Source of the DNA: an uncultured Janibacter sp.
Lineage (GTDB): Bacteria; Actinomycetota; Actinomycetes; Actinomycetales; Dermatophilaceae
Length of the DNA: 64,000 nucleotides
Direction of reading: 5' to 3'
Assembly: GCA_964430615.1 (NCBI GenBank)
Contig: CAYSGN010000005.1
Location: forward strand, 3,395-67,394
Position 1 is the first letter of the stretch. The number at the start of each line of letters is the position of its first letter. Both the position numbers and the translations under genes were made by a program. The notes under the pieces are model-generated. The model was not told the origin of the DNA, did no database searches, and saw only the letters and a list, made by a program, of their open reading frames with translations. Positions 6,654 to 35,488 of the stretch are shown one piece after another.

Positions 6654-8300
6654 TCAGGTGCGCAGCTCCCTTCGCAGGATCTTGCCGGTCACCGTCTTCG
6701 GCAGCTCGTCGATGATCTCCACCTGCCGCGGGTACTTGTAGGCCGACAGCCGCTCCCGGCAGTGGCCGATGAGCTCGTCGGGTGTCGCGGTCGTCCCGGC
6801 GCGCAGGCTGACGAAGGCCTTGACGGTCTCACCGCGCTTCTCGTCCGGCACCCCGACCACGGCCGCCTCCAGGACGGCGGGGTGCTCGGCGAGCACGTCC
6901 TCCACCTCCCGGGGCCACACCTTGTACCCGGAGGCGTTGATCATGTCCTTCTTCCGGTCGACGATGAAGATCCAGCCCTCGGGGCTCATGAACCCCACGT
7001 CGCCGCTCTTGAGCGAGCCCCCGGGGATGCCGGCCGCGGTCTCCTCCGGCTTGTTCCAGTAGCCGGCGACGACCTGGGGCCCCTCGGCCATGATCTCGCC
7101 GACCTCCCCCAGCGGCAGGTCCTCCCCGTCGTCCCCCTGGATCCGCACGACCGTGGAGGGCACGGGCACGCCGACGGAGAGCGCCCCGGACGTCTCGTCG
7201 ACCGGTGATGCGGCGCCGAAGGGGGTCAGCGTCATGGGGCTCGTGGTCTCGGTGAGCCCGTAGGCGTTGTGCACCTGGCGGCCGGTCGCCTCGTGGAAGG
7301 CCCGCTCCGCGGTCGGCGATATCGGCGCGCCTCCGGAGTAGACGGAGCGGAAGGACGCGAAGTGCTCCTCGGTGAAGTCCGGGTGCGCGAGCAGGGCGTT
7401 GAAGGCCGTGATCGCCCCGATCGTGTACGTGGGGCGGTGGCGCAGGAACTCCTCGAGCACGACGCCCGGGTCGAAGCGGTAGGCCAGCACCAGCGGCATC
7501 GGCGCGAGGAGGCTGATGGCGATGTGCCCGATGAGCCCGGTGATGTGGAAGAGCGGCGCGATGCCGAAGACCGAGCCTCCGGGAGCGAAGCGGGCACCGT
7601 CCCGGTAGACGCCAGCGGTGAAGACGACGTTGCGGTGGGTGTTCATCGCCCCCTTCGGCACCCCGGTGGTCCCCGAGGTGTAGGTGAGGAAGGCGACGTC
7701 GTCCGGCCCGAGAGCGGCCCTCGGGGGCGCCTGGCCGCGATGCTCCTCGATGAAGGCGCTCAGGTCCTGCGTACCCTCGTGCCGCACCCGCTCGACCCCG
7801 TCGAAGAGGCCGCGACCGTGCTCCGTGTGGTGCTCCAGCTCACTCGTCGTGAGGACGAGCTGCACCGGGGAGTCGGGGACGACCTGCGCGGCCACCTCCC
7901 CGTAGAGGCTCTCCAGGGAGACCAGGACCTTGGCGCCCGAGTCCTCGAGGAGGTAGGTCAGCTCGCGCTGCCGGCTCATCGGGTTGATGGAGACGAGGAT
8001 GCCTCCGGCCTTCCACGTGGCGAGCACGGCGATGACGAACTGCGGGACGTTCTGGAGGTACACCGCGAGACGGTCTCCGGCGACGAAGCCGTTCGCCGCG
8101 AGGCCGGCCGCGAGCGCATCGCTCTGCTCGTCGAGCTCCCGACGGGTGAGGGAGCCGTCGAAGTAGGTGATGGCCGCCCCGTCCGGGTCGGCCTCGAGAC
8201 CCACCCGGAACATCTCCAGCCCATTGGGGTGGGAGATCTCGATGCGCTCCGGCAGGTCGCCGTAGAGCGCCAGCCACGGCTTGTCGTCGTAGACGGACAT
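6654..8300 (-). CDS. Long-chain acyl-CoA synthetase (AMP-binding)
   Basis: YTSGTTGVPKG, YGLTET, SGDVG, DRKKDMI and TGKILR adenylation motifs. Confidence 0.9.
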   Translation of the reverse strand: MSVYDDKPWLALYGDLPERIEISHPNGLEMFRVGLEADPDGAAITYFDGSLTRRELDEQSDALAAGLAANGFVAGDRLAVYLQNVPQFVIAVLATWKAGGILVSINPMSRQRELTYLLEDSGAKVLVSLESLYGEVAAQVVPDSPVQLVLTTSELEHHTEHGRGLFDGVERVRHEGTQDLSAFIEEHRGQAPPRAALGPDDVAFLTYTSGTTGVPKGAMNTHRNVVFTAGVYRDGARFAPGGSVFGIAPLFHITGLIGHIAISLLAPMPLVLAYRFDPGVVLEEFLRHRPTYTIGAITAFNALLAHPDFTEEHFASFRSVYSGGAPISPTAERAFHEATGRQVHNAYGLTETTSPMTLTPFGAASPVDETSGALSVGVPVPSTVVRIQGDDGEDLPLGEVGEIMAEGPQVVAGYWNKPEETAAGIPGGSLKSGDVGFMSPEGWIFIVDRKKDMINASGYKVWPREVEDVLAEHPAVLEAAVVGVPDEKRGETVKAFVSLRAGTTATPDELIGHCRERLSAYKYPRQVEIIDELPKTVTGKILRRELRT

Positions 8301-8309
8301 GCGCGTGGC

Positions 8310-9266
8310 CTACTTGATGACGACCGGGTTGACGGGCGACCCGCTGCCCTGCGCCACCTTCAGCGGGGCCGCGGCGTAGAAGACCTCGTAGCAGCCGTCC
8401 TCGGCGCAGTCCGCCGCCAGCTCCTCCAGGTCGGTCAGCTCGGTGAAGGCGACCCCGAGGTTGCGCATGAGGGCGTTGTGCAGCACGAGCGCGGCTCCGC
8501 TGTCGGGGTCGGTGGTCACCTCGTTGGCGATGGTGTCGGTCACGAGGTTGGGGATCTCCATGTCGGCGAACCACCGGACGAGCTCCGGGCTGTAGACCAG
8601 GCCCGGCTCGCAGAAGTCCTCGTAGAAGGCGTCACCGAGCTCGAAGAAGAGCTGGAGGTAGTTCGTGCGGATGAGCAGGATGTCGCGCTTGCGCAGCTCG
8701 ACGCCCTGCTGCTCCGCACATGCCTGGAGGTCCTCGTGGGTGAAGGTCTCGGCGGACTCGAGGCTCTCCTTGCCGCGGAAGCGAGCCATGTCCAGGAGCA
8801 CCGCCCGGCCGACGATCCCTCGCTCGGCGATCGGCTGGACACTGGCCTTCTCCATACCGCCGACGGTGGTCCGGGCGTCGAAGCCGTTCCACAGCTTGCC
8901 GTCGTACCAGACGTGGCCGAGCGCGTCGTACTGCGTGGACCCCTGGAGGAAGCACTCCATCTTGTCGTCGGCGTAGTGCAGCCCGCCCGGGAACTGAGGA
9001 GCATCGTCGCCGTCCCAGGTCGCCTCGTCCATGATCTGGGTGCGCACGGCAGGCTTGCGGCTGGGCCAGACGGGGTCGCCCTTCGGGTCGCCGATGAGGC
9101 GTTGGACGGCGAAGACCTTGCCGGACCTGATGAGTCCGGCGGCGGCGATCACCTGCTCCGGCCCCAGGTAGTTCAGGCTTCCGACCTCGTCCTCCGGACC
9201 CCACTTGCCCCAGTTGGACGGGGAGCCCTCGAGCAGGTCGGTCAGGTCGGGCGTTGCGTCGGTCAT
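8310..9266 (-). CDS. Cyclase-family (kynurenine formamidase-like) hydrolase
   Basis: NWGKWGPEDEVGSLNYL, QGSTQYDALGH, GIVGRAVLLD, DILLIRT, GSGSPVNPVVIK. Confidence 0.8.
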   Translation of the reverse strand: MTDATPDLTDLLEGSPSNWGKWGPEDEVGSLNYLGPEQVIAAAGLIRSGKVFAVQRLIGDPKGDPVWPSRKPAVRTQIMDEATWDGDDAPQFPGGLHYADDKMECFLQGSTQYDALGHVWYDGKLWNGFDARTTVGGMEKASVQPIAERGIVGRAVLLDMARFRGKESLESAETFTHEDLQACAEQQGVELRKRDILLIRTNYLQLFFELGDAFYEDFCEPGLVYSPELVRWFADMEIPNLVTDTIANEVTTDPDSGAALVLHNALMRNLGVAFTELTDLEELAADCAEDGCYEVFYAAAPLKVAQGSGSPVNPVVIK

Positions 9267-9423
9267 CGTGCTCCTCCTTGAGCGTGCGGGACGCAGCACC
9301 TCCCGAGCACTCGGTCGGTGCCGTGCAGGTGATCTCCACCGTGGCCCGTGCGGCGACGGGTGTCAACGGTTCGCGGGTGGGGCGCGCACGCCGCGGCGAC
9401 CGCCGACCCAGGGGCCGCTCGGC

Positions 9424-10770
9424 TCAGCGCACACCGGCGGTGGCCGCGTCCGGTGCCACGACCGGCCCCTCCCGGTCGTGGCGGACGAGCAGGACGCGCA
9501 GCAGGGGCACGCAGGCGAGGCCGAGCGCGGTGGCCGCGACGAGCACCCACAGGCCGGAGGACGGCGAGCCGGTCGCCTTCTCGGTGAGCCCGAAGGCGTA
9601 GGGACCCACGAAGGCACCCGTGAGGCCGATCGTGTTGACGAAGGCCAGACCGGCCGCAGCAGCCACCCCACCGAGCCGGGCCATGAGCACCGACCAGTAG
9701 AGCGGCTGCACGCCGACGATGAAGAGCATCGTCAGGCTCAGGATGATCATCTGCGCGACGGGGTCGCCCACGGCGATGAAGAGGAGGGCGCAGACGATCG
9801 CCGCGGCGGTCGTGATGCCGATGAGGGGGACCTCGGCTCCGGGGGCGCGCCGCAGCACCCGCGGGATCACGAGGACACCGATCACGGCGCCGATCCCGAC
9901 GACACCCGAGATGAGTCCGATCATGAAGCTGTCGGTCACGTGCATCGCCTCGACGATCGACGGCACGAAGAAGACCACGCCGTAGGTCGCGATCTGGTTC
10001 ATGAAGTAGATCGCGGCGACGGTGAGCAGGAAGGGCTTGGACATCGCCTGGCGCACGATCGCGCCGGGCCGCCCGACGTGCGGCTCCTGACCGACGGCGC
10101 GACGGGTGAGCTCGGCGGCCTCGTCCTCGTCGAGCCACGTGGCCTTCGCCGGCGAGTCGGGCAGCGTGAAGAAGATGTAGATGCCGAGCAGGACGGTCGG
10201 GATGCCCTCGAGGACGAAGAGCCACTGCCAGCCGTGCAGGCCGGCGAGGCCCTCGAGCTTCATCAGCGCACCGCCGATCGGGTTGGCGACGATGAAGGCG
10301 ACCGAGGACGCGGTGAGGATGAGACCGACGACGGTGGCGCGGTCCTTCTGCGCGAACCACGTCGTGATGAGGTACATGATCCCCGGGTAGAGGCCGGCCT
10401 CGGCCGCACCGAGCAGGAGCCGCAGGACGTAGAAGACCGTCGGGCTCGAGACGAACATCATCGCCATCGTCAGCAGACCCCAGGTGACGGCGATTCGGCT
10501 GATCCACACCTTCGCCCCGATGCGGTGCAGCACGAGGTTGCTCGGGACCTCCAGCGCTGCATAGGTGACGAAGAAGAGCCCCGCCCCGAGGCCGTACGCC
10601 GCAGCGTCGATCCCGGCGTGCAGCTCGAGCGAGGACTTGGCCAGCCCGACATTCGTCCGGTCGACGAAGGCCATGAAGTAGGCGGCCATGAGGAGCGGCA
10701 CCAGCCGCACGAAGGCCTTGCGCGTCGCTCTCGCGTGGACCGAGTCCGACATCGTCGTCGGTGAGGTCAT
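9424..10770 (-). CDS. MFS transporter (anion:cation symporter-like)
   Basis: FVDRTNVG, EVPSN, GAAEAGLYPG, GWQWLFVLEGIP; about 12 TM segments. Confidence 0.9.
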   Translation of the reverse strand: MTSPTTMSDSVHARATRKAFVRLVPLLMAAYFMAFVDRTNVGLAKSSLELHAGIDAAAYGLGAGLFFVTYAALEVPSNLVLHRIGAKVWISRIAVTWGLLTMAMMFVSSPTVFYVLRLLLGAAEAGLYPGIMYLITTWFAQKDRATVVGLILTASSVAFIVANPIGGALMKLEGLAGLHGWQWLFVLEGIPTVLLGIYIFFTLPDSPAKATWLDEDEAAELTRRAVGQEPHVGRPGAIVRQAMSKPFLLTVAAIYFMNQIATYGVVFFVPSIVEAMHVTDSFMIGLISGVVGIGAVIGVLVIPRVLRRAPGAEVPLIGITTAAAIVCALLFIAVGDPVAQMIILSLTMLFIVGVQPLYWSVLMARLGGVAAAAGLAFVNTIGLTGAFVGPYAFGLTEKATGSPSSGLWVLVAATALGLACVPLLRVLLVRHDREGPVVAPDAATAGVR

Positions 10771-10787
10771 GGTGAAACTCCCCTGTA

Positions 10788-10805
10788 CTTGAAGGATGAT
10801 TCAAG
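10788..10805. promoter_or_regulatory. Palindromic operator, copy 1
   Basis: CTTGAA-GGATGA-TTCAAG in the MFS/ligase divergent region. Confidence 0.75.
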
Positions 10806-10809
10806 TTAT

Positions 10810-10827: not shown

Positions 10828-10866
10828 TTGTGTCAAGGATCACCCATCCACCGGACGGAGACACCG

Positions 10867-12525
10867 ATGACGACCACCCCGACCACCGTCGCCGACCTCC
10901 CCTTCGCCGGGGCCGCCACCCACGGCAGCGCACCCGCGCAGGCCTCGCGTCGCGAGGACGGCTCCTGGCCCACGACCTCGTACGCCGAGATGGCGACGGC
11001 CGTCGACGAGCTGGCCCGTGGCCTCATCGCCCTCGACGTGCAGCCCGGCGACCGCGTGGCGCTGCTCGCCGACACCCGCGCCGAGTGGGCGCAGGTCGCC
11101 TACGCCGTGGCCGCGGCCGGCGGGGTCCTCGTCCCGATCTACGCGACGAACAGCCCGCAGGAGTGCCACTGGGTCCTGCAGGACTCCGGTGCGCGGGCCG
11201 TCGTCTGCGAGGACGCCGGCCAGGTCGCCAAGATCCGGGAGGTCACCGCCGACCTCGACGCCCTCGAGCACGTCCTGTCGATCGAGCCGGCGGAGGGCGT
11301 GGAGGACCTGGCCGCCCTGCGGGAGCGCGGTGCAGGCATCACCGAGGAGGCGCGGTCGGCGCGCACCGCCGAGGTCGCCCCGAACGACCTCGCGGTGATC
11401 ATCTACACCTCCGGCACGACCGGCCGGCCCAAGGGCTGCATGCTCACCCACGACAACCTCATGTCGTGCGCCCGTCAGACCGCCGAGCTCGACATCGTGA
11501 CGAGCGAGGACTCGACCTACCTCTTCCTGCCCCTGGCGCACGTCTACGCCCAGACGCAGAACTTCACGGCGCACGCGCTCGGCGGCTGCACCTACTACGC
11601 CTCCGAGGGGCCGGCCCAGGTGATGCGCGACCTCGCCGAGGTGCGGCCGACCTGCTTTCCCTCGGTGCCGCGCATCTACGAGAAGGTCTACGCAGCCTTC
11701 GCCGGGGCACCGCGCACCGAGGAGGTCCTCGCCCGGGCGAAGGGAGCCCTCGGCGGGCGCATCCGCGTCGCCATCAGCGGCGCCGCCCCCATCGCCGGGG
11801 AGATCCTCGAGTTCTTCCACGCAGCGGGCGTCCCCGTCTACGAGGGCTACGGGCTGAGCGAGTCCACCGCCTTCGGCACGGTCAACCTGCCGGACGCGAC
11901 CCGCATCGGCACCATCGGCCGGCCGATGCCCTTCGGCGAGGTCCGCATCGCCGAGGACGGCGAGATCCAGATGCGCGGGCCGCACATCTTCGCCGGCTAC
12001 TGGCACAACGACGAGGCGACGGCGCAGACCTTCACCGAGGACGGCTGGCTGCGCACCGGCGACCTCGGCGAGATCGACGCCGACGGCTACGTGCGGATCA
12101 CCGGCCGCACCAAGGACATCATCATCACCGCAGGCGGCAAGAACATCGCACCGGCCGCCTTCGAGAACGAGCTGCGGCAGTCCCCCTTCGTCTCGCACGT
12201 CGTCATGCACGGCGACCGGCGCCCCTACCCCGTCGCGCTCATCACGCTCGACCCCGACCACGTCGTGCCGTGGGCCCGCGAGCAGGGACTGCCCGAGGAC
12301 CTCGACGCGCTCCGCGAGGACCCGACGCTGCGCGCCCGCCTCCAGGAGGAGGTCGACGCGGCCAACAGCCACCTCGCCCGCGTCGAGCAGGTCAAGCGCT
12401 TCGCGGTCCTGCCGCGCGACTTCTCCCCCGAGACCGGCGAGCTCACCGTGACGCTCAAGCTGCGCCGCTCGGTCGTCGAGGACCGCTACCGGCAGGTCCT
12501 CGACGACCTCTACGCCCAGGAGTGA
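10867..12525 (+). CDS. Long-chain acyl-CoA synthetase (FadD15/ACSL-like)
   Basis: IYTSGTTGRPKGC, FLPLAHVY, EGYGLSES, LRTGDLG, GRTKDIIITAGGKNIAP; start MTTTP at 10867. Confidence 0.88.
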   Translation: MTTTPTTVADLPFAGAATHGSAPAQASRREDGSWPTTSYAEMATAVDELARGLIALDVQPGDRVALLADTRAEWAQVAYAVAAAGGVLVPIYATNSPQECHWVLQDSGARAVVCEDAGQVAKIREVTADLDALEHVLSIEPAEGVEDLAALRERGAGITEEARSARTAEVAPNDLAVIIYTSGTTGRPKGCMLTHDNLMSCARQTAELDIVTSEDSTYLFLPLAHVYAQTQNFTAHALGGCTYYASEGPAQVMRDLAEVRPTCFPSVPRIYEKVYAAFAGAPRTEEVLARAKGALGGRIRVAISGAAPIAGEILEFFHAAGVPVYEGYGLSESTAFGTVNLPDATRIGTIGRPMPFGEVRIAEDGEIQMRGPHIFAGYWHNDEATAQTFTEDGWLRTGDLGEIDADGYVRITGRTKDIIITAGGKNIAPAAFENELRQSPFVSHVVMHGDRRPYPVALITLDPDHVVPWAREQGLPEDLDALREDPTLRARLQEEVDAANSHLARVEQVKRFAVLPRDFSPETGELTVTLKLRRSVVEDRYRQVLDDLYAQE

Positions 12526-12700
12526 GTCACCCGCGGCCGACGGTGATCGGAAGTGACTCGCTGGTAGGACGACCACTACGGATGTCGAGTCCGGCGAGAT
12601 CCCCGATTTCCCGGGGTGCCGTGATCGGCGAGGGCGGCGACATGGTGTCGTACCCGCGAGTAGCTCACGGCGGACCGCAGGAGTGAGTCACCCGCGGCCG
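12517..12700. repeat. 23-bp direct repeat flanking a 138-bp insert
   Basis: CAGGAGTGAGTCACCCGCGGCCG at 12517-12539 and at 12678-12700. Confidence 0.9.
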
Positions 12701-14358
12701 GCGACCACCTCGTCGGCCCGGGCGAGCAGCTCGGCCTTGCGGATCTTGCCGGTGTCGGTGAGCGGGAAGGCCTCGACGACCTCGACGGTCGGCACCTTGT
12801 AGACCGCCATCCGCTCCCGGGCCCACTCCTCGAGCTCGGCGGCGGTGAGGCGAGCGCCGTCGCGGACGCTGACGAAGGCGACCGGACGCTGCCCCGTCTC
12901 GACGTCGTCCGCGGGGACGACCGCGACCGAGGCGATGTCGTCGTGACCGGCGAGCATCATCTCGACCTCGGCCGGGAAGACACTCATGCCGTTGACCTTG
13001 ATCATGTCCTTGGTCCGCGCCAGGTAGTGCAGGCACCCGTCGTCGTCGAGGTAGCCCGTGTCGCCGGTGTGCAGCCACCCGCCGCGCAGCTGCTCGGCGC
13101 TCGCCTGCGGGTTGCGCCAGTAGCCGGTCATGATCGAGGGGCTGCGCAGGAGGATCTCCCCCGCCGTGCCGAAGGGAACGGGGTCGCCGCTCTCGGGGTC
13201 GACGACGACCACGTCGGTACCGGGGACCGGCAGCCCGCAGAAGACCGGCTCGGTGAGCAGGTCGTGGTCGCCGTCGTGGAAGCCGTAGGGGACGACGTCG
13301 ACCGTGTGGCTCTCGGTCATGCCGAAGGAGCCCTCGCGCAGGATCGACCCGGCACCGACGACCTCGGCCCAGCGGTGGCGCACCTCGGGCGTGAGCTTGC
13401 GGATGAAGGACATCGCCATCGGCGCGGTGAAGGAGGTGAGGTCCCGCTCGGCCAGCCCGGGCAGGTCGAGGATGTCGAGATAGCTCTCGACCGTCGCGGC
13501 GGTCGTCGTCACGCGGTACCGCTCGACGAGGTCGACGACGGTGGCGGCGTCCCACCGCTCGAGGAGGACGGTCGTGCCACCCATGACGAGCGGGATGAGG
13601 ATGCCCAGGTCCTCCCCCGCGATCCAGAAGACGGGGATGAAGCACAGCGAGACGATGTGCGTGCCGTCGAAGCCGTTGGCCCCCGAGGCACTCACCGCCG
13701 TGTAGACCATGTGCCGCTGCGTGTGCTCGCAGCCCTTGGGCAGGCCGGTCGTCCCGCCCGTGTAGTTGAGCGCCGCGAGCGCGTCGAGGTCCCGGGCCGG
13801 TTCGACGAGCGGCTCGGCGGTCGTCGTGTCCGACCACCGCACGACCTCGACCCCCTCGACGGCAGGAAGAGGGTCCCCCTCATCTCCCAGCACGACGACC
13901 GTGCGCACGGCGGTCTCGGCGGCGGCATCGCAGAGACGTTGTGCCAGAGGGGCGCTCGTCACGACGACGGTCGTGCCGGAGTCCGCGAGCTCGTGGACGA
14001 GCTCCGCGTGGCGAAACATCGGGTTGACCGGGACGTGCACGCAGCCGGCGCGCAGCGTGCCGAGGAAGGCGAGGACGAACTCGGGCACGTTGCCCAGGTG
14101 GACGCCGACCCGCTCACCGGGGGCGACCCCCTTCGCCCGCAGCCACCCGGCCCACCGCGCATGGCGGTCGGCGAGCTCGCGGTAGGTGATCGTCACGTCG
14201 TCGTGGACGACGGCCGCGTCGATCGGGCGCTGCTGCGCCCACGCGTCGACGTACTCGGGCACGGTGAGACACCCGAGCGGGTGGATGACCTCGCGTGGGG
14301 TGTCGGCGGGGCGCACGCGCTCCTGTCGGCGGCGGATCTCCTGCAGGTGCTGCTCCAT
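12688..14358 (-). CDS. Acyl-CoA synthetase (AMP-binding)
   Basis: NYTGGTTGLPKG, FGMTES, LHTGDTG, RTKDMIK, TGKIRK. Confidence 0.88.
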   Translation of the reverse strand: MEQHLQEIRRRQERVRPADTPREVIHPLGCLTVPEYVDAWAQQRPIDAAVVHDDVTITYRELADRHARWAGWLRAKGVAPGERVGVHLGNVPEFVLAFLGTLRAGCVHVPVNPMFRHAELVHELADSGTTVVVTSAPLAQRLCDAAAETAVRTVVVLGDEGDPLPAVEGVEVVRWSDTTTAEPLVEPARDLDALAALNYTGGTTGLPKGCEHTQRHMVYTAVSASGANGFDGTHIVSLCFIPVFWIAGEDLGILIPLVMGGTTVLLERWDAATVVDLVERYRVTTTAATVESYLDILDLPGLAERDLTSFTAPMAMSFIRKLTPEVRHRWAEVVGAGSILREGSFGMTESHTVDVVPYGFHDGDHDLLTEPVFCGLPVPGTDVVVVDPESGDPVPFGTAGEILLRSPSIMTGYWRNPQASAEQLRGGWLHTGDTGYLDDDGCLHYLARTKDMIKVNGMSVFPAEVEMMLAGHDDIASVAVVPADDVETGQRPVAFVSVRDGARLTAAELEEWARERMAVYKVPTVEVVEAFPLTDTGKIRKAELLARADEVVAGRG

Positions 14359-27570: not shown

Positions 27571-28572
27571 TCAGAGCTGGAGGAGGAGCTTGCCCGTGTT
27601 GACCCCGTCGAAGAGGCCGAGCAGGGCGTCGGGGAAGGCAGCGACGCCACCCTCGAGGACGGTCTCGGTCGCGACGAAGCGGCCGTCGGCGATGAGCTCG
27701 CTGATGCCGGCGATGGCCTCGGGGTAGCGGTCGGCGTAGTCCATGACGAGGAAACCTTGCATGCTCGCGCGGAAGACGAGCAGGGCCATGTAGCGACGCG
27801 GCCCCTCGGCGAGGGTCTCGTCGTTGTACGTCGAGATCGCGCCGCAGATGGCGATGCGGGCACCGTGGGCGAGGTTGGCCAGGGCGGCGTCGAGCAGCTC
27901 GCCGCCGACGTTGTCGAAGTAGACGTCGACCCCGTCGGGGGCCGCGGCGCGGACCTGGCGCAGCAGGTCGCCCTCGCGCCGGTCGATGACCTCGTCGAGG
28001 CCGAGCTCGCGCAGCCATTCGACCTTGTCCGGGCCGCCCGCGACGCCGATGACCCGGCAGCCCTTGGCCTTGGCGAGCTGGGCGACGGTGCTGCCGACGG
28101 CTCCGGCCGCGGCGGAGACGAGCACGGTGTCGCCCGGCTGCGCCCGACCGACGTCCTCGAGGCCGAACCACGCGGTCATGCCGGGCATGCCGAGCGCGCC
28201 CAGCCAGGTGCTCATCGGGGCGACGTCGAGGTCGAGGCGGGTGACTCCCTTCCCGTCGGAGATCGCGTACTCGCGCACCCCGAAGGTGCCGCTCACGACG
28301 TCGCCGACGGCGAAGTCGTCGTGCTGCGAGGCGATGACCGTGCCGGCGCCGAAGGCGCGCATGACGGCCCCGATCTTCACCGGCGGCAGGTAGGAGCGCA
28401 CGTCGTTGAGCCAGCCGCGCATCGCCGGGTCGAGGGAGATCTGCTGCATCTCGACGAGGAACTCTCCGGGCCCCGGGTCCGGGACCTCGCTCGTGGCGAG
28501 CTCCCAGGTGCTCGCGTCGGGGCGGCCCTGGGGGCGGGCGGCGAGGCGGATCTCCTGCGAGGTCCGGGTCAT
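27571..28572 (-). CDS. NADP-dependent oxidoreductase (PGR/LTB4DH-like alkenal reductase)
   Basis: SLDPAMRGW, LGMPGMTAWFGL, VSAAAGAVGS, YFDNVGG, NTGKL. Confidence 0.88.
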   Translation of the reverse strand: MTRTSQEIRLAARPQGRPDASTWELATSEVPDPGPGEFLVEMQQISLDPAMRGWLNDVRSYLPPVKIGAVMRAFGAGTVIASQHDDFAVGDVVSGTFGVREYAISDGKGVTRLDLDVAPMSTWLGALGMPGMTAWFGLEDVGRAQPGDTVLVSAAAGAVGSTVAQLAKAKGCRVIGVAGGPDKVEWLRELGLDEVIDRREGDLLRQVRAAAPDGVDVYFDNVGGELLDAALANLAHGARIAICGAISTYNDETLAEGPRRYMALLVFRASMQGFLVMDYADRYPEAIAGISELIADGRFVATETVLEGGVAAFPDALLGLFDGVNTGKLLLQL

Positions 28573-28707: not shown

Positions 28708-29493
28708 ATGGACTTCTCCGCCCTGTTTTCCCTCGACGGTCGCGTCGCCCTCGTCACCGGAGGCTCCCGCGGCATCGGCCGGATGATCACCGAGGGCCTC
28801 CTCGCCCAGGGGGCGCGGGTCTACATCACCGCCCGCAAGGAGGACGCCTGCCGCGCGACGGCCGCTGAGCTGTCGCAGCAGTACGGCGAAGGGCGGTGCG
28901 TCGCCCTCCCTTGTGACGTCTCGACGACCGAGGGCATCGCGAGCCTGCTCGCCGCCTTCGGCGAGCACGAGGACCACCTCGACGTCCTCGTCAACAACGC
29001 CGGCGCGGCGTGGGGCGCGCCCTTCGACGAGTTCCCCGAGAGCGGCTGGGACAAGGTGATGGACCTCAACGTCAAGGCGCCCTTCTTCCTCACCCAGGCG
29101 GCCAAGGGCCTGCTCTTCGCCGGCCGCGAGCGCAGCGGGCACCTCGCCAAGGTCATCAACATCGCCTCGATCGACGGCCTCTCGCTCAACCCGGGGCAGA
29201 CCTACAGCTACCACGCGAGCAAGGCGGGGGTCGTCCACCTCACCAAGCGGATGTCGGTCGAGCTGGCACCGCAGGGCATCGTCGTCAGCGCCATCGCGCC
29301 CGGCGCCTTTGCCTCGACGATGAACAAGGACGCCCGCGACCACGCCGACGAGATCTCCGCGCAGATCCCCTCCGGCCGGATCGGCCGCCCCGAGGACATG
29401 GCAGCCGCCGCGGTCTACCTCGCCTCGGACGCCGGTGACTACGTCGTCGGCAGCACGCTCACCGTCGACGGTGGGGTCAACATCGCGCGTTGA
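28708..29493 (+). CDS. SDR-family oxidoreductase
   Basis: TGGSRGIG, NNAG, YSYHASK, SAIAPG; ATG at 28708. Confidence 0.88.
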   Translation: MDFSALFSLDGRVALVTGGSRGIGRMITEGLLAQGARVYITARKEDACRATAAELSQQYGEGRCVALPCDVSTTEGIASLLAAFGEHEDHLDVLVNNAGAAWGAPFDEFPESGWDKVMDLNVKAPFFLTQAAKGLLFAGRERSGHLAKVINIASIDGLSLNPGQTYSYHASKAGVVHLTKRMSVELAPQGIVVSAIAPGAFASTMNKDARDHADEISAQIPSGRIGRPEDMAAAAVYLASDAGDYVVGSTLTVDGGVNIAR

Positions 29494-29572: not shown

Positions 29573-30253
29573 TCAGTCGGCGCGCAGCTCGGGGCTGGTG
29601 AGCCCGAGCGCGTTGGTCCACAGGCGCGTGGCGGTGTCGACGAGCCCATCGACGTCGTCGACAGCGCCACCGCCGAAGGACTCGTAGGCCAGGCGGGCGA
29701 CCATGCCGGAGAGGGCCATCGCGGCCATCGTCGCGTCGACGCCCCGGTCGGCGAGGCCCCGCTCCTGGAGATCGGCGATCGCCCGGGCGTTGCGGTGGAC
29801 GAAGGCGAGGCTGCGTGCGTTGCGCACCTCGCGGAAGCGCGGGTCGACGGCGGCGACCTGTTGGAGCAGCAGGTTGAGCCGCGCATTGCGCCGGTAGGCC
29901 TCGAAGTAGGCCCGGTTGCTCGCCGCGATGATCGCGACCGGGTCGTCGGTCGCCTCCATGCGGTTGGTGCCCGGGTGGAGCATCTCGCTCTGCGCCTCGT
30001 GGAGGACCGCGGCGAAGACCTCGTCCTTGCTGTCGAACCACGTGTAGAAGCTGCCGATCGAGCACTTCGCCTCGGCGGCGATGTCGACCAGGCGCGAGTC
30101 GACGTAGCCGTCCCGCTCGAAGACGGTGCGGGCGGCGGCGATGAGCGCGTCGCGGGTGCGCTTGCCGCGCGGCGTCTGGGGCTGGGTCCCCAGCTTCGCC
30201 GCATCGACGAGGTCGGGGACCTCGCTGGCGGCGGTGTCGCTCTCGCTCGGCAT
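29573..30253 (-). CDS. TetR/AcrR family transcriptional regulator
   Basis: RTRDALIAAARTVFERDGY...DIAAEAKCSIGSFYTWFDSKDEVF HTH; possible leaderless start (TAGGGT-N7-ATG). Confidence 0.92.
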   Translation of the reverse strand: MPSESDTAASEVPDLVDAAKLGTQPQTPRGKRTRDALIAAARTVFERDGYVDSRLVDIAAEAKCSIGSFYTWFDSKDEVFAAVLHEAQSEMLHPGTNRMEATDDPVAIIAASNRAYFEAYRRNARLNLLLQQVAAVDPRFREVRNARSLAFVHRNARAIADLQERGLADRGVDATMAAMALSGMVARLAYESFGGGAVDDVDGLVDTATRLWTNALGLTSPELRAD

Positions 30254-30263
30254 GGCGGCCACC

Positions 30264-31301
30264 CTAACCCGCCTCGTCGAGCACGACGTGCGCACAGGTG
30301 ACGAGCTCGTCGACGGCCGCGGCCGGGATGACCCCGGCCGCGGTGAGGTTGCGTGGGTCGTCCTGCTGACGCCGACGCACCCCCTCGAGGATGATCGCGA
30401 GCTTCCACAGCCCCAGCCCGTGCCAGAAGGTGACCGCCGAGACGTCCCGACCGGAGACGGCGGCGTAGTGCTCGACGAGCTCGGACCGGGTCGCGAAACC
30501 CGGTACCGACGAGGCGTCGAAGCGCATCGTCGGCGGGTCGCCGGCCATCGGCCAGTACGCGAGCAGGGTCCCGAGGTCGGCCAGGGGGTCGCCCAGCGTC
30601 GACAGCTCCCAGTCGAGGATCGCGCGCACCGTGGCCTCGTGCGGGTCGATGATGACATTGCGCAGGTGGCTGTCCCCGTGGACGAGCGCCACCTCGCCGG
30701 GCCCGGGGTCGCTGGCGGAGAGCCGCCTGGTGAGCCGCTCGAGGTCCGGCAGGTCACGGGTCCGCGAGAGGTCCCACTGACGCGACCACCTGCGCAGCTG
30801 CCGTGCGCCGTAGGGCTTGTGGCTGGCGAGGTCGGCGAGCCCGGCGTCGTCGAGGTCGACCGCGTGGATCCGGGCCAGGGTGTCGACGAGCGAGAGGCCG
30901 GCGCGGTGCCGAGCGGCCGGGGGGAGTCGCTCGGCGTCCGCGCGGCTGTCGAGGACCTCCCCGTCGACGAAGGAGACCGCGAGCAGGGGCACGTCGCTCA
31001 CGGTGGGGTCATCGCAGAGCCCGTGCACGACGGGGAGCGGGACATCCGTGCCCTGGAGGGCGGAGAGGATCCGGTGCTCACGCGCCACGTCGTGGGCGGA
31101 GGCGAGCAGCTCGCCCAGGGGTGGACGCCGCAGGACCAGGCGCTCCCCCTTCGCGTCCGTCGCCAGATACGTGAGGTTGGACTGCCCGAGGCCGACCCGG
31201 GCGAAGGACAGGGGCGGCTGCATGCCGATCCCCAACCCCTCGATCCATCCGGTCACGGCCTCGGCGTCCAGGCCCTCGGTGACGTCGCTCTCGTGGCTCA
31301 T
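30264..31301 (-). CDS. APH-family phosphotransferase (ACAD10/11 kinase-like)
   Basis: GQSNLTY, RRPPLG..SAHDVAREHRIL, HGDSHLRNV, LDWELSTLGDPLADLG. Confidence 0.88.
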   Translation of the reverse strand: MSHESDVTEGLDAEAVTGWIEGLGIGMQPPLSFARVGLGQSNLTYLATDAKGERLVLRRPPLGELLASAHDVAREHRILSALQGTDVPLPVVHGLCDDPTVSDVPLLAVSFVDGEVLDSRADAERLPPAARHRAGLSLVDTLARIHAVDLDDAGLADLASHKPYGARQLRRWSRQWDLSRTRDLPDLERLTRRLSASDPGPGEVALVHGDSHLRNVIIDPHEATVRAILDWELSTLGDPLADLGTLLAYWPMAGDPPTMRFDASSVPGFATRSELVEHYAAVSGRDVSAVTFWHGLGLWKLAIILEGVRRRQQDDPRNLTAAGVIPAAAVDELVTCAHVVLDEAG

Positions 31302-31326: not shown

Positions 31327-32550
31327 CTACTTCGTCCGGCCCCACTCCGGCGCGCGGCGGCGGTACTCGCGGCGCGCGATGGTCCTCTTGTGCACCTCGT
31401 CGGGGCCATCGGCGAGGCGCAGGGTGCGCATGTGCGCATACCACTGGGCCAGCGGGAAGTCGTCGCTCACCCCACCGCCACCGTGCACCTGGATCGCGCG
31501 GTCGATGACCTTGAGCGCCACCTGCGGGGCAGCCACCTTGATCGCTGCGATCTCGGTCCGGGCGACCTTGTTACCGACCGTGTCCATCATGTGCGCCGTC
31601 TTGAGGGTGAGCAGCCGGGCCATCTCGATCTCGATGCGCGCCTCGGCGACCCAGTCCATGATGTTCGCCCGGTCGGCGACCGGCTCGCCGAAGGTGACCC
31701 GGGACTGCGCCCGGTCGATCATCAGGTCCAGGGCCCGCTCGGCGACGCCGATGGCGCGCATGCAGTGGTGGATGCGGCCGGGCCCCAGCCGGGCCTGGCT
31801 GATCATGAAGCCGTCGCCCTCCCCCGCGAGGAGCGCCTCCTTGGGGACCCGGACGTCCTCGAGGACGACCTCCGCGTGGCCCTCGCGGTCCTGGTAGCCG
31901 AAGACGGGCAGCCCGCGCTCGATCCTCACCCCCGGCGTGTCGAGCGGGACGACCATCATCGACTGCTGACGGTGGGTCGGTGCCTCCGGGTCGGTCTTGC
32001 CCATGACGATGAGCACCTTGCAGTTCTTGTGCAGGGCGTTCGAGGTCCACCACTTGCGACCGTTGATGACGTACTCGTCCCCGTCGCGGACCATCGAGGT
32101 CTCGATCTTCGTCGCGTCCGAGCTCGCGACGGCCGGCTCGGTCATGGCGAAGGCGGAGCGGATCTCCCCCGCGAGGAGGGGCTCCAGCCAGGTCCTCTTG
32201 TGCTCCTCGGTCCCGAAGAGGGTGAGCACCTCCATGTTGCCCGTGTCCGGCGCACTGCAGTTGATGGACTCGGGCGCGATCTCGATGCTGCGGCCGGTGA
32301 TCTCCGCCAGGTGCGCGTACTCGAGGTTGGTCAGGCCCGGGCCCCACTCGGGGTGGGGGTGGAAGAGGTTCCACAGCCCGCGGCCGCGGGCCTCGGCCTT
32401 GAGGTCCTCGAGGACCTGCGGGTGGTGGTTGGGGTCGCCGGACTCGCGCATCTGCCGGCGGTAGACGCTCTCCGCCGGGTAGACGTGCTCGTCCATGAAG
32501 GCGAGCAGGCGGTCGCGGTAGTCCTGGCCGCGGTCACTGAGGTCGAACAT
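31327..32550 (-). CDS. Acyl-CoA dehydrogenase (ACAD10/11-like subfamily)
   Basis: [46 protein letters not shown]. Confidence 0.9.
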
Positions 32551-33247
32551 CGTGGTGGTCCTTCTCCTGGCGGGTGGTGGGTGTGGTCGTGGACGAAGGG
32601 AGACCCAGCGCCTCACGGATGCGCGGGATGCTCTCCTGCGCGCTGCGATGGAAGATGCCCCGGATGCCGAGGCGTGCCGCCCCGACGAGGTTGTGCTCGA
32701 GGTCGTCGACGAGCACGCAGGCCTCGGGCCGGACCCCGAGGCGCTCGCAGGCGATCCGGTAGATCCCGCGAGAGGGCTTGCGGACACCGACCTGCCCCGA
32801 GACGACCGTGACGTCGACGAGCTCGTCGAGGTCGATACGGGCGTAGCAGTCGCGCCCGAGGGAGTTGGAGACCAGAGCGACGGGGACCCCGGCGGCCCGG
32901 ACCTCGCGCACGAGGTCGATCATCGCCCGGTCCGGGTGCAGGTGGCTGCCGAGCCGGGCGAGCAGCCCTCGTGCCTCGACGTGCGCCCCGACCTCGGAGA
33001 GTGCCGCGGCGAAGACGTCCTCGAAGCCCTCGTCGTCCAGCCGACCGAGCTCGTGCTCGACGAGCGCCGTCCGAGCAGCCTCGTGGGTCGCCAGCACGCG
33101 CAGGGCCTGGTCCGGGTCGAGCCCGGTCCCGGCCCCGAGCGCCCGGAAGGCCTCTGCCAGCGGGAGGGTGAGCACTCCCCCGAAGTCGACGAGGAGGGCA
33201 TGGGCGCGCGAGCCGGTGCCGAGGACGGGTGTGGGCGGTGACGACAC
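32534..33247 (-). CDS. HAD-superfamily phosphatase (subfamily IA)
   Basis: LVDFGGVL motif I, LVSNS, RKP, VDDL..N; GTG 33247 with GAGGAGG RBS. Confidence 0.85.
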
Positions 33248-33281
33248 GGGCGCCTCCTCATGGTTCGCGGGCACGACCACA

Positions 33282-33310
33282 GGTATACTTGAATTCAGAT
33301 TCATATACAA
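33282..33310 (-). promoter_or_regulatory. Promoter of HAD-ACAD-kinase(-TetR) operon with operator copy 6 (33288-33305)
   Basis: TTGTAT-N17-TATACC on the minus strand; operator CTTGAA-TTCAGA-TTCATA overlaps the spacer. Confidence 0.7.
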
Positions 33311-33329: not shown

Positions 33330-34682
33330 ATCCCCACCGCCACCGTCTCACCCCAGCCGTACCGGGGCGTCCTGGCGGGCGCCTTCGCGGTGCTCTTCGG
33401 CGTGACCGGCCTGGGCAGCGCGGCCGTGGCGGTCGCCGTGCCCGCCATCTCCGACGATCTCGGTCTCACCACGGGCCGGGCCGCCCTCGTCGTCAGCTGC
33501 TACTCCCTCTCCCTGGCAGTCGGGAGCGCGGTCTTCGGCCGGCTCGGTGACCTCGTCGGCCTCCGGGCGCCGCTGCTCCTCGGGATGTCGGTCATGGTGG
33601 CCGCCGCGTGCGCCGGTGCGCTCGTGGACACCCTCCCGGCGCTCATCGCCACCCGGATGCTCCAGGGCCTCGGGGCAGCGGCCGTCCCGGTGCTGACCCT
33701 GGCCGCCGTCCAGGCACTCTTCGCCGGTGACAGCCGGGCCCGGGCCCTCGCCACCTACTCGGGGATCGGTGCCACGGTGAACACCGTCGGGCCGGTGATC
33801 GGCGCGACCCTCGTCGACCCCTTCGGCTGGCGCCCCGTGGTGGCGATCCCCGCGGTGACCCTGGCCGTCCTCCCCTTCGTCTGGCGCGACGTCCCGACCG
33901 AACGTCAGCCGGGGGCGGCCCTCGACCCCGTCGGCACCCTCCTCGTGGCGGGCGCAGCCATCGGCGCCGTGCTCTCCCTCCAGGCGGCGACCCTGGGGAC
34001 GACCACGGCGCTCGTGGGCGTGCTCCTGCTCCTCGTCGGCGCCCCGGGCGCGGCGGCGCGCTCGCGGACCCGACCCGAGGGCGTGGTGCCGCAGGCCCTG
34101 GTCCGCGACCCCAGCGCCCGCCGCAGCCTGCTGACCGCGGTCAGTCTCTCGTCGGCCTGGTTCGGGATGCTCGTGGCGATCCCGGCGGTGCTCATCGCCC
34201 ACGGCTGGACGGGGGTCGAGGTGGGGATGCTGCTGCTGCCGTGCGCCGCCCTGGGCCTGGTCGCGCCGCGCGTCACGGGCCCGGCGCTCATCGCCCTGGG
34301 GGCGGCTCGCGGTCAGCTCGTCGCAGGGGTGGGGGTGGCCGCCGCGGTCGTGTGCGCCGCGGTCGGGGTCGCCGTCGTGCAGCCGGTCCCGCTCGTCGCC
34401 GCGACCCTGCTGCTCATGCTCTCCTTCGGGCTCGGCCAGCCGGCGATGACCTCTCTCGTCGCGGACTCGGTCCCGGCGCGCACGCGCGGCAGCGCGCTCG
34501 GTCTGCTCACGCTCGTCTTCCTCCTCGGCGGCAGCCTCGGCGCCGCCACCGTCGGCGGCCTCGGCGAGACCTTCGGTTTCGCCCGCGCACTCCTGCTCCT
34601 GGCCACCCTGCCGGCTCTCGCCGCGCTCGCCTTCGCCCTCCCACGCACTCCCATCCGCACCCGAGCACAGGAGATCCCGTGA
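33330..34682 (+). CDS. MFS transporter (DHA2-like)
   Basis: FGRLGDLVG, RMLQGLGAA, about 14 hydrophobic segments; start placed at ATC 33330 behind GAGGAG (uncertain). Confidence 0.82.
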   Translation: MPTATVSPQPYRGVLAGAFAVLFGVTGLGSAAVAVAVPAISDDLGLTTGRAALVVSCYSLSLAVGSAVFGRLGDLVGLRAPLLLGMSVMVAAACAGALVDTLPALIATRMLQGLGAAAVPVLTLAAVQALFAGDSRARALATYSGIGATVNTVGPVIGATLVDPFGWRPVVAIPAVTLAVLPFVWRDVPTERQPGAALDPVGTLLVAGAAIGAVLSLQAATLGTTTALVGVLLLLVGAPGAAARSRTRPEGVVPQALVRDPSARRSLLTAVSLSSAWFGMLVAIPAVLIAHGWTGVEVGMLLLPCAALGLVAPRVTGPALIALGAARGQLVAGVGVAAAVVCAAVGVAVVQPVPLVAATLLLMLSFGLGQPAMTSLVADSVPARTRGSALGLLTLVFLLGGSLGAATVGGLGETFGFARALLLLATLPALAALAFALPRTPIRTRAQEIP

Positions 34683-35488
34683 CCGACCGCACCGACCACG
34701 TCCTCTTCGACCTGACCGACGGCATCGCGACCGTGACGCTCAACCGGCCCGAGCGGCGCAACGCGATGTCGGTGCCCATGATCGAGCGCCTCGGCGAGCT
34801 GCTGGCCCGCACCGACGAGGATCCCGACGTGCGCGTGCTCGTCCTGACCGGTGCGGGGCGTGCCTTCTGCGCCGGAGGTGATGTCCAGCAGTTCGACGCC
34901 GACGGCGGCGAGGGCGGGGGTGCGAGCGAGGTCGACCCCCGGGCCGTGGCCGAGCAGCTGCGCCACCAGGAGCTGACCGTCGGTCGCATCCACGCCTTCA
35001 CCAAGCCGGTCATCGCCGCCCTCCCCGGCGCGGCGGCCGGTGCGGGACTGGGGCTGGCCCTCGCAGCGGACCTGCGCATCGGCACCCCGCGCACCGTGGT
35101 GGCCACCGCCTTCGCCGGGGTGGCGCTCTCGGGCGACTTCGGCGTCGTCTGGCTCCTCGACCGGCTGCTCGGCCCCGCGCGGGCCCGCGAGCTGCTCCTG
35201 CTCAACCCGAGGGTGTCGGGCCAGGAGTGCCTCGACCTCGGGCTGCTCACCCGGCTCGTGCCCGAGGAGGAGCTGGAGGAGCGCACGCGGGAGCTGGCCG
35301 CCCGGCTGGCTGCCGGGCCCGCTCGCGCGCTGGCCGGGATCAAGCGCAACCTGCTCGAGGCCCCCACCCAGAGCCTGTCCGAGTCGATGGCCGCCGAGAT
35401 CCCCCGGCACAAGGACTGCGGCCTGACCAGCGACCACGTCGAGGCGGCGCGGGCGTTCGTGGAGAAGCGCCCTCCGGTCTTCGGGTGA
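34679..35488 (+). CDS. Enoyl-CoA hydratase/isomerase family protein
   Basis: NRPERRNAM, AFCAGGD, GAAAGAG, DLRI; GTGA overlap with the MFS stop. Confidence 0.9.
   Translation: MTDRTDHVLFDLTDGIATVTLNRPERRNAMSVPMIERLGELLARTDEDPDVRVLVLTGAGRAFCAGGDVQQFDADGGEGGGASEVDPRAVAEQLRHQELTVGRIHAFTKPVIAALPGAAAGAGLGLALAADLRIGTPRTVVATAFAGVALSGDFGVVWLLDRLLGPARARELLLLNPRVSGQECLDLGLLTRLVPEEELEERTRELAARLAAGPARALAGIKRNLLEAPTQSLSESMAAEIPRHKDCGLTSDHVEAARAFVEKRPPVFG

Follow-up and report, generated by a model that had tools for sequence, protein, structure and literature searches.

A TetR regulon in Janibacter that joins a split-gene ACAD10 to an enlarged set of acyl-CoA genes and probably serves a 4-phosphoacyl-CoA route for C4-oxygenated fatty acids

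Background

What does a bacterium degrade with four coenzyme A (CoA) ligases, four acyl-CoA dehydrogenases (ACADs), a biotin-dependent carboxylase and a kinase that share a single regulator? This question is raised by a cluster of 24 genes (referred to here as g11 to g34) in an uncultured Janibacter sp. (assembly GCA_964430615.1, contig CAYSGN010000005.1), where it occupies positions 6654-35488 of the window, that is, of the whole 64,000-nucleotide stretch of DNA that we analyzed. A first-pass annotation had proposed a complete pathway, from uptake to beta-oxidation, for substrates that are blocked for normal beta-oxidation, such as 4-hydroxy and 4-oxo acids, lactones or branched acids. In this article we describe the genes, a shared operator and the relatives of the cluster in other genomes, and we propose with moderate confidence that it is a TetR-controlled catabolic regulon in which C4-hydroxy and C4-keto fatty acids, and probably also gamma-lactones and 2-enoyl derivatives, would be degraded by way of 4-phosphoacyl-CoA.

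The phosphorylated acyl-CoA route for 4-hydroxy acids is a recent addition to metabolism, reported from Pseudomonas putida in 2017 and from mammals in 2024-25. In the levulinate operon lvaABCDE of P. putida (Rand et al. 2017, as summarized in PMC12440821 and PMC11342911), a kinase produces the 4-phosphoacyl-CoA and an atypical ACAD eliminates the phosphate, which admits the product to beta-oxidation. In mouse ACAD11, D753 is the catalytic base and R626, H634 and R637, located on one helix, hold the 4-phosphate; mutating the phosphate-holding or catalytic residues blocks turnover of 4-phosphoacyl-CoA (PMC12440821).

Results

Gene content and layout

Genes were called with a model of codon-position GC content (GC3) and named with Pfam and NCBIfam; the GC content of the window is 72%. 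The gene content is a direct observation. The cluster encodes four AMP-forming CoA ligases (g11, g14, g15 and g21), four ACADs (g18, g19, g20 and g31), three short-chain dehydrogenases/reductases (SDRs; g22, g23 and g28), two medium-chain dehydrogenases/reductases (MDRs; g26 and g27), a thiolase (g17), a MaoC-type and a crotonase-type hydratase (g24 and g34), a 4HBT_2 thioesterase (g25), a carboxylase with fused biotin carboxylase, biotin carboxyl carrier protein and carboxyltransferase domains (BC-BCCP-CT; g16), an APH-fold kinase (g30), a HAD-family protein (g32), a PF04199 "cyclase"-family protein (g12), two transporters of the major facilitator superfamily (MFS; g13 and g33) and one TetR-family protein (g29). 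The gene classes listed by the first-pass annotation agree with these 24 genes exactly. NCBIfam provided an equivalog-level name for no gene of the cluster, with the exception of a generic thiolase model on g17.

The genes form eight transcription units separated by four divergent intergenic regions: g13-g12-g11 is opposite g14, a nine-gene unit running from g23 to g15 is opposite g24, g27-g26-g25 is opposite g28, and g32-g31-g30-g29 is opposite g33-g34. Gaps within the units range from -17 to +40 nt, except for the 157 nt between g13 and g12.

A shared operator and its presumed regulator

The operator can be read directly from the sequence. The palindrome CTTGAA-N6-TTCAAG occurs in six copies with 0-2 mismatches, all of them within the four divergent regions: O1a and O1b (10788-10805 and 10810-10827, both perfect) between g13 and g14, O2 (25441-25458, perfect) between g23 and g24, O3a and O3b (28620-28637 and 28642-28659, with 2 and 1 mismatches, respectively) between g27 and g28, and O4 (33288-33305, 2 mismatches) between g32 and g33. 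Two of the four regions therefore carry tandem pairs. From composition, 0.23 sites with at most two mismatches are expected in the 64-kb window. Only four sites with at most one mismatch exist in the 3.17-Mb genome, every one inside the cluster, and the nine further two-mismatch sites elsewhere in the genome compare with a chance expectation of ~11.

Conservation of the operators is equally a matter of observation: four other Janibacter genomes, L006 and L007 (J. limosus and J. indicus) as well as G412 and G401, keep them at the orthologous positions between genes. O2 is kept in all four; L006, L007 and G412 carry the O3 pair at the corresponding place, where G401 has one site within two mismatches; the O4 position is kept in G412 and G401; and G412 has two operator-like sites upstream of its g13 orthologue. 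The earlier proposal of four divergent promoter regions with one common operator is thus borne out. So are the proposed borders of the cluster, because the flanking genes (DUF520 and a tRNA gene on one side, a CoxG/Mo-hydroxylase/XdhC operon on the other) are convergent with the cluster and free of operators. A scan of the intergenic regions for the sigma-70 consensus found no promoters, this consensus being uninformative for an actinobacterium of 72% GC.

The only regulator encoded in the cluster is g29 (29573..30262, minus strand), which has TetR_N and EthR_C domains (Pfam). It is the last gene of the HAD-ACAD-kinase operon and is consequently predicted to be autoregulated. Orthologues of g29 are present in 20/20 Janibacter genomes, in 2/16 other genera of the family and in 0/25 genomes from other families of the order. 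At the sequence level, a TetR_N protein is found together with a repeated palindrome in its would-be target promoters, and the palindrome is kept in relatives; g29 is predicted to bind this shared operator. We conclude that the regulon is real. The identification of g29 as a gamma-butyrolactone receptor was considered and rejected, as the match to the ScbR family is weak (57 bits vs the 150-bit cut-off) and insufficient for it.

Two ACAD11-type flavoenzymes

Two of the ACADs, g20 (21061..22278, minus strand) and g31 (31327..32550, minus strand), belong to the ACAD11/LvaC type. They score 476 and 448 bits, respectively, against ACAD11 (8v3u), compared to at most 166 bits for canonical, non-ACAD11-type ACADs scored against g20 and g31, and they are 64% identical to each other. 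In both proteins the segment ADGPDEVH aligns with LADGPDEVH of ACAD11, so that the catalytic Asp corresponding to mouse D753 replaces the usual Glu, and both have the equivalents of R626, R631, H634 and R637 in the phosphate-binding "HCMR" helix; all five diagnostic residues are present in g31. The diagnostic residues are kept in 81/82 actinobacterial orthologues. Judged by these residues, g20 and g31 are predicted to be phosphate-eliminating enzymes that act on 4-phosphoacyl-CoA.

Orthologues of g20 across Actinomycetota are 70-80% identical to it, and the J. limosus and J. indicus proteins 95%. Both enzymes are associated with the kinase: g31 lies 25 nt from g30, and g20 is in the same regulon, where it is part of the operon of the carboxylase g16 and is joined to its neighbours by a 16-nt gap and an 8-nt overlap. 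Outside the cluster, a short contig of the genome (C81:241-1440) bears a third ACAD11-like gene, with 45% identity to g20 and g31.

The kinase, the HAD protein and the split ACAD10

The APH-fold kinase g30 (30264..31301, minus strand; PF01636) is a homologue of LvaA and of the kinase domains of ACAD10 and ACAD11. Its matches among solved structures include the ACAD10-type kinase 9o56 of C. thermarum (1e-51), 3dxp (1e-41) and the ACAD11 kinase domain (2.5e-32). Aligned with these three, g30 keeps the catalytic Asp and Asn (D220/N225; HGD...N), the DWE metal motif and the beta3 Arg (LRRPP). The arginines R86 and R176 of ACAD11, which are modelled to hold CoA (PMC12440821), have counterparts as well, in that ARE and GARQ of g30 align with DRE and CKRQ of ACAD11. 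From these features g30 is predicted to be a 4-hydroxyacyl-CoA kinase, a type of enzyme that acts on the CoA ester and leaves the free acid alone. Two other APH paralogues in the genome (on contigs C50 and C13) are 35-39% identical (tblastn), and neither adjoins ACAD11-type genes.

The HAD-family protein g32 (32534..33280, minus strand, with a possible alternative start at 33247 instead of 33280) overlaps the start of g31 by 17 nt. It is assigned to the HAD family by Pfam and is of the type of the EPHX2 N-terminal and ACAD10 HAD domains; its best NCBIfam match is TIGR02247, a model of EPHX2-N-like phosphatases (85 bits, under the 125.4-bit cut-off). An AlphaFold2 (AF2) model of g32 was built from five sequences (predicted local distance difference test score, pLDDT, 78). 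Its top Foldseek match is to the human soluble epoxide hydrolase, in the phosphatase domain (E 1e-11, template modelling (TM) score 0.70), and the same domain is the nearest fold of the ACAD10 HAD domain (preprint PMC13596139). Motif I of g32 is DFGGV, in which the second Asp of the DxD is missing, and D[YFW]GGV is found in 5/5 orthologues recovered; according to the published description, the HAD domain of ACAD10 also keeps only the first Asp (PMC11342911). Taken together, the family match, the fold match and motif I place g32 with the ACAD10 HAD domain. The HAD protein g32, the ACAD g31 and the kinase g30 therefore constitute a split-gene ACAD10. Split kinase and ACAD orthologues from Burkholderia pseudomallei can replace or complement ACAD10 domains in vitro (PMC11342911). 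The function of g32 is probably to restrain or proofread the phospho-intermediate.

Relatives of the cluster in other genomes

Synteny was observed directly. Two complete Janibacter genomes (G412 and G401) have the same gene order from g34 to g13, the carboxylase g16 included, and lack g11 and g12; between their orthologues of g15 and g13, 4/4 Janibacter genomes checked (L006, L007, G412 and G401) have no g14. Because g11, g12 and g14 are missing from the relatives checked, we regard them as additions in this strain and the conserved regulon as one of 21 genes. Dietzia sp. E1 (NZ_JAALDU010000156.1), which belongs to another taxonomic order, has much of the cluster, with 52-80% protein identity (75% for the TetR protein) and with degenerate operators at the same intergenic positions, which suggests horizontal transfer of the regulon.

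The wider comparison covers 77 non-Janibacter actinobacterial loci around g20 orthologues. The kinase gene is directly upstream of the ACAD11-type gene in 68/75 loci, and within 8 kb there is an SDR1-like gene (similar to g22) in 58/77 and a CoA ligase gene in 36/77. Streptomyces venezuelae has kinase-ACAD-TetR-SDR only. Units of the form TetR-ACAD-kinase and ligase-SDR-ACAD-kinase-TetR, accompanied by TGAA-N6-TTCA-like sites, occur in two further genera of the Janibacter family. At the other extreme, an actinobacterial metagenome-assembled genome (locus L100) contains a single operon with the order thiolase-SDR-SDR-MDR-HAD-SDR-MaoC-APH-ACAD11-type-ACAD-ACAD-ADH_N_2-type MDR, flanked by ligase and TetR genes. 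The MaoC gene is directly upstream of the kinase gene in this operon, whose content equals the Janibacter set minus the carboxylase, transporters, thioesterase, crotonase and strain-specific genes. The existence of such a compact operon elsewhere in Actinomycetota indicates that the accessory set of two ene-reductases, three SDRs, MaoC, heteromeric ACAD and thiolase is a recurring functional unit rather than a chance neighbourhood. The picture that emerges is one of a minimal lva-like unit with a TetR regulator, to which several lineages have added a recurring accessory set and which in Janibacter is divided into eight units that keep the ancestral operator.

The fused carboxylase and the heteromeric ACAD

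By its Pfam domain order, g16 (14374..17562, minus strand; 1062 aa) is a fused BC-BCCP-CT carboxylase of the LCC family (long-chain acyl-CoA carboxylases). Within the nine-gene operon it comes eighth. Its match to the LCC of M. avium (PDB 4rcn) reaches 1079 bits over residues 1-1043, end to end, and the biotinylation motif EAMKME is found at residue 497. The genome contains five other full carboxyltransferase genes, besides a fragment at a contig end, which makes a housekeeping acetyl-CoA carboxylase role of g16 unlikely. Full-length fused LCC homologues are rare, occurring in 3/400 sampled genomes of the phylum. Our guess is that the probable substrate of g16 is an acyl-CoA formed by the pathway, such as propionyl-CoA or a longer one.

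Upstream of it in the same unit, g18 (18826-19902, minus strand) and g19 (19899-21068, minus strand) overlap by 4 nt and encode an ACAD subunit pair (Pfam), similar to PimD/PimC and IpdE2; the NCBIfam matches to PimC, PimD and IpdE2 are all sub-threshold. Their orthologues are located directly downstream of the ACAD11-type gene in 9/71 loci.

One of these three, a mycobacterium-like genome (locus L132, G178:C24:123901-143900), has, at 6012-15096 of that locus, a thioesterase gene divergent from a ligase-LCC-SDR-PimC-like-PimD-like operon. With this operon, LCC is repeatedly tied to the heteromeric ACAD family that elsewhere follows the ACAD11-type gene.

Remaining genes of the cluster

In the nine-gene unit, the ligase g15 (12688..14358, minus strand; Pfam; NF004822 at 686 bits vs a 782-bit cut-off) is the last gene. 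The thiolase g17 (17583..18785, minus strand; Thiolase_N/C) matches NF005494 with 616.8 bits, above the 615-bit cut-off, and is a 3-ketoacyl-CoA thiolase. The unit also comprises the ligase g21 (22295..23821, minus strand), assigned by Pfam with sub-threshold NCBIfam matches, and two SDRs identified by Pfam. The first, g22 (23821..24645, minus strand), is a candidate 4-oxoacyl-CoA reductase that may take the role of LvaD, and the second, the FabG-like g23 (24636..25397, minus strand), whose NCBIfam matches to FabG and acetoacetyl-CoA reductase models are sub-threshold and whose orthologues are 67-80% identical in the extended operons, is a candidate (R)-3-hydroxyacyl-CoA dehydrogenase. Opposite this unit is the MaoC-type, R-specific enoyl-CoA hydratase g24 (25505..25975, plus strand; PF01575).

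The third divergent pair consists of the hot-dog thioesterase g25 (26100..26600, minus strand; 4HBT_2, PF13279), two MDRs and the SDR g28 (28708..29493, plus strand; Pfam, NCBIfam sub-threshold). The MDR g26 (26597..27550, minus strand; Pfam) is of the quinone-oxidoreductase or enoyl-(acrylyl-)CoA-reductase type, with sub-threshold matches to TIGR02824 and the acryloyl-CoA reductase models. The other, g27 (27571..28572, minus strand; PF16884), is a double-bond reductase of the family of PTGR1, leukotriene-B4 12-hydroxydehydrogenase, 2-alkenal reductase and CurA; it matches NF058644 with 348 bits vs a 440-bit cut-off, and its PDB matches are 4b7c, PTGR1 and plant alkenal reductases. In the fourth pair, g33 (33390..34682, plus strand; PF07690) is an MFS protein of the drug:H+ antiporter (efflux) type, for which the BagJ/FevB, Tet(L) and Bcr/CflA models of NCBIfam are all sub-threshold, and g34 (34679..35488, plus strand; PF00378) is an enoyl-CoA hydratase/isomerase of the crotonase family, for which the enoyl-CoA hydratase models are sub-threshold.

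The first pair includes the other MFS protein, g13 (9424..10752, minus strand; PF07690), of the anion:cation symporter type, whose best NCBIfam matches (D-galactonate transporter/HpaX) are below cut-off. It is kept in all Janibacter loci examined and, from its family, is likely a carboxylate importer. The ligase g11 (6654..8300, minus strand; PF00501/PF13193) has NCBIfam long-chain ligase matches at sub-threshold level only. The ligase g14 (10867..12525, plus strand; PF00501 and PF23562, with NF038343 sub-threshold) has a FadD11-like C-terminal domain. The protein g12 (8310..9266, minus strand) had been called a cyclase-family hydrolase; its membership in PF04199 (Pfam) holds, and any hydrolase activity is putative. 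Its sole relative in the PDB, 5ibz (190 bits), is uncharacterized, and it has no NCBIfam match.

Several other features were noted in and around the cluster. In 10867-12700, the 3' end of g14 is followed by an insert of ~138 bp flanked by a 23-bp direct repeat, CAGGAGTGAGTCACCCGCGGCCG, which contains the stop codons of both convergent genes, g14 and g15. In J. indicus (L007, 17990-20971), the match to g15 is split into two parts ~1.3 kb apart, so this orthologue is probably interrupted by an insertion. Between the convergent g24 and g25 (25984-26092) a ~22-bp palindrome with the core CCCTAGGG occurs three times, and its last copy is nested inside a 25-nt inverted repeat that is 96% complementary, resembling a repetitive extragenic palindromic (REP) element. 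A tRNA gene (5966-6048, minus strand; 57 bits), the sole Rfam match and outside the cluster, lies just past DUF520 at the end that bears the g11/g12 insertion and may mark an integration hotspot. Beyond the other border, an operon convergent with g34 (35501-41276, minus strand) encodes CoxG, an FAD subunit, a Mo-hydroxylase large subunit, a 2Fe-2S subunit and XdhC; it belongs to the xanthine/aldehyde/CO-dehydrogenase family and contains no copies of the operator.

Discussion

Proposed pathway

The gene set can be arranged into a route as follows. A carboxylate would enter via g13 and be activated by one of the four CoA ligases. Double bonds conjugated to a carbonyl would be saturated by the ene-reductases g27 (PTGR1/alkenal-reductase type) and g26 (enoyl-CoA-reductase type), and a 4-oxo group would be reduced by the SDR g22 or g28, the step performed by LvaD in P. 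putida. The resulting 4-hydroxyacyl-CoA would be phosphorylated by g30, after which g31 and g20 would eliminate the phosphate in a redox-neutral reaction to give 2-enoyl-CoA. Hydration by the MaoC g24 or the crotonase g34, oxidation by the FabG-like g23 and thiolysis by g17 would close the cycle, and the heteromeric ACAD g18/g19 could serve further ordinary cycles. The TetR protein g29 would repress all eight units via the six operators until it binds an intermediate of the pathway, probably an acyl-CoA. We infer the substrates from the enzyme families only, and likewise the order of activation, ene-reduction and 4-oxo reduction, the pairing of TetR with the operator and any roles of the HAD protein, LCC, g12, g25 and g33.

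With respect to the first-pass annotation, a pathway for acids blocked for normal beta-oxidation, namely 4-hydroxy and 4-oxo acids and lactones, gains support from the split ACAD10 and its diagnostic residues. Its description as a complete uptake pathway is uncertain, since g33, one of the two transporters, resembles an efflux protein.

A number of observations weigh against the proposed route. The kinase is divergent, with HGDSHLRN in place of the HGDYRLDN found in 63/73 orthologues, that is, with a His instead of Lys/Arg two residues past the catalytic Asp; its identity to the kinases found with g20 orthologues in other genomes is only ~40%, and as a single kinase it has to serve two ACAD11-type enzymes. 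The closest solved relative of g30, 9o56, has been reported to phosphorylate alkylglycerols in vitro (PMC13596139). The presence of LCC is not explained by the sequence, and its association with this gene set is seen in Janibacter only. The cluster encodes no recognizable lactonase or aldehyde dehydrogenase, and an oleate hydratase (PF06100), searched for in the genome as an endogenous source of 4-hydroxy acids, was not found. As for the regulator, its pairing with the operator follows from co-occurrence only, and g29 has no characterized close relative (E >= 4e-8 among solved structures). Finally, four ligases and three SDRs would equally fit several substrates or branches instead of one linear pathway.

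A more specific version of the proposed route can be put forward tentatively, as a possibility that we do not expect to hold in full. The Janibacter regulon and the compact 13-gene operon may define a dedicated bacterial pathway, so far undescribed, for oxidized lipids, that is, for 4-oxo and 4-hydroxy acyl chains and their 2-enoyl forms derived from lipid peroxidation or hydroxy fatty acids, in which the HAD protein acts on or controls the 4-phosphoacyl-CoA, the PimCD-like ACAD is a specific partner of the ACAD11-type enzyme and LCC carboxylates the product.

Alternative explanations

The last of the points above leads to the alternative that survives best, although we consider it unlikely: the cluster could be a regulon for odd lipids in general, made of separate acyl-CoA branches whose sole link is the TetR protein, with the kinase and ACAD11-type enzymes serving 4-hydroxy acids and a module of LCC, heteromeric ACAD, thiolase and ligase serving, for example, long-chain, bulky or dicarboxylic acyl-CoAs. 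The two parts do exist apart, as ligase-LCC-SDR-PimC-PimD stands alone in the mycobacterium-like genome, without kinase or ACAD11-type genes, and the kinase-ACAD pair stands alone in Streptomyces. The four ligases belong to different subfamilies, g11, g12 and g14 are strain-specific add-ons, and the sub-threshold matches of g18/g19 are to subunits of pimeloyl-CoA dehydrogenase. Against separate branches, the PimCD-like pair directly follows the ACAD11-type gene in 9 independent loci and shares one operon with the kinase in L100, g20 is embedded in the Janibacter LCC operon through its 16-nt gap and 8-nt overlap, and a single type of operator is used throughout.

Very much less probable is that the kinase and HAD protein act on lipid alcohols or phospholipid-like molecules, so that the cluster would remodel or salvage glycerolipids. 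ACAD10 was recently reported to be an alkyl-/acylglycerol kinase and a lipid phosphate phosphatase, and 9o56, like other homologues from prokaryotes, can phosphorylate chimyl alcohol in vitro (PMC13596139); the fold of g32 is also nearest to the lipid phosphatase domain of soluble epoxide hydrolase. However, the authors of that study leave the relation between the two activities open, and the ACAD to which the kinase is fused or adjacent has retained its triad for binding the phosphate of a phospho-acyl-CoA. The cluster otherwise consists of CoA ligases, hydratases, thiolase and ACADs, and Pfam identifies no glycerolipid enzymes in it.

In the atu cluster (atuR/atuA-H), a carboxylase is likewise found together with ACADs, a hydratase, SDRs, a ligase and a TetR regulator, and steroid side-chain degradation typically involves heteromeric ACADs and MaoC hydratases. 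We nevertheless reject as barely credible an Atu/Liu-like breakdown of branched (isoprenoid) acids or of steroid side chains, readings under which the carboxylase would remove a beta-methyl block and the heteromeric ACAD and MaoC would take bulky CoA esters, even though the atu-like combination of gene types and the sub-threshold match of g18 to IpdE2 speak for them: g16 is a homologue of LCC (4rcn, 1079 bits) and falls into a different carboxyltransferase group from the geranyl-/methylcrotonyl-CoA carboxylases, which carboxylate at the gamma position (PMC6491548), Pfam finds no ring-degrading or lyase genes, and the kinase/ACAD11/HAD trio would be left unexplained. The branched acids offered as substrates by the first-pass annotation have no specific support, the same classification of g16 (PMC6491548) being the reason.

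Relation to known systems

The 4-phosphoacyl-CoA route that we favour has its closest counterpart in the lva operon. As in P. putida, the CoA ligase, reductase, APH-type kinase and phosphate-eliminating ACAD are separate genes under one regulator, and the minimal unit of the relatives, ligase-SDR-ACAD-kinase-TetR, has the same composition. Through the homology of both systems to ACAD11, g30 would correspond to LvaA, g31 and g20 to LvaC, an SDR to LvaD and the ligases to LvaE; a small partner resembling LvaB was not identified, no search having been aimed at one. In contrast to lva, there are two ACAD11-type paralogues per kinase; there is the HAD protein g32, of which lva has no equivalent (PMC12440821); and there are at least 18 additional genes, including LCC, the heteromeric ACAD, two ene-reductases, the thioesterase and two transporters. 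The regulators also differ, going by published descriptions, which name LvaR for lva, whereas Janibacter has a TetR protein and a palindromic operator.

The likeness to mammalian ACAD10 (HAD, kinase and ACAD domains) and ACAD11 (kinase and ACAD domains; 8v3u/8v3v) extends to the domain set, the catalytic Asp, the R/H/R cluster and the catalytic and CoA-binding residues of the kinase, and the Janibacter HAD protein shares with ACAD10 the loss of the second Asp of the DxD and the EPHX2-like fold. Unlike ACAD10, Janibacter has three separate genes in the order HAD-ACAD-kinase inside a dedicated bacterial regulon, and unlike the ACAD11 kinase (HGDFKLDN), g30 has His for Lys (HGDSHLRN).

The carboxylase g16 resembles MapLCC (PDB 4rcn; Tran et al. 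2015 as cited in PMC6491548) in being a single BC-BCCP-CT chain with end-to-end alignment and a biotinylation motif; LCC itself is a homohexamer that prefers long-chain acyl-CoA. In the literature covered (PMC6491548), LCC has no defined physiological role, whereas g16 is found inside a defined TetR regulon. The pimFABCDE operon of Rhodopseudomonas palustris, which serves dicarboxylate beta-oxidation, likewise encodes a two-subunit ACAD from adjacent genes with a ligase, thiolase, hydratase and dehydrogenase, but g18 and g19 are far under the TIGR03203 and TIGR03204 equivalog cut-offs (161 vs 624 bits and 104 vs 653 bits) and are thus only family relatives of PimCD.

The first-pass annotation did not recognize the cluster as a described pathway. 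For the core reaction this view has to be revised, as that reaction is already known from lva and ACAD10/11, and the cluster matches a characterized pathway in part, in its core only. For the enlarged 24-gene regulon it stands: literature searches found no description of such a cluster in Actinomycetota, no characterized actinobacterial version of the pathway and no work on the pathway in Janibacter. What appears to be new is the enlarged regulon under TetR, with its LCC, its PimCD-like ACAD and its pair of ene-reductases.

Conclusions

The cluster is a genetically tractable system in a non-pathogenic setting, in which the three domains of ACAD10 occur as separate proteins, co-regulated with accessory enzymes and LCC. 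It bears on the function of the ACAD10 HAD domain, on the question of whether the kinase acts on acyl-CoA or on ether-lipid alcohols, and on the purpose of LCC. In practical terms, the pathway is of interest for how levulinate, gamma-valerolactone, flavour lactones and the products of lipid peroxidation are broken down. If its assignment to oxidized lipids were true, the Janibacter regulon would provide the first defined metabolic context for LCC and would bear on the dispute over the kinase and HAD activities of ACAD10.

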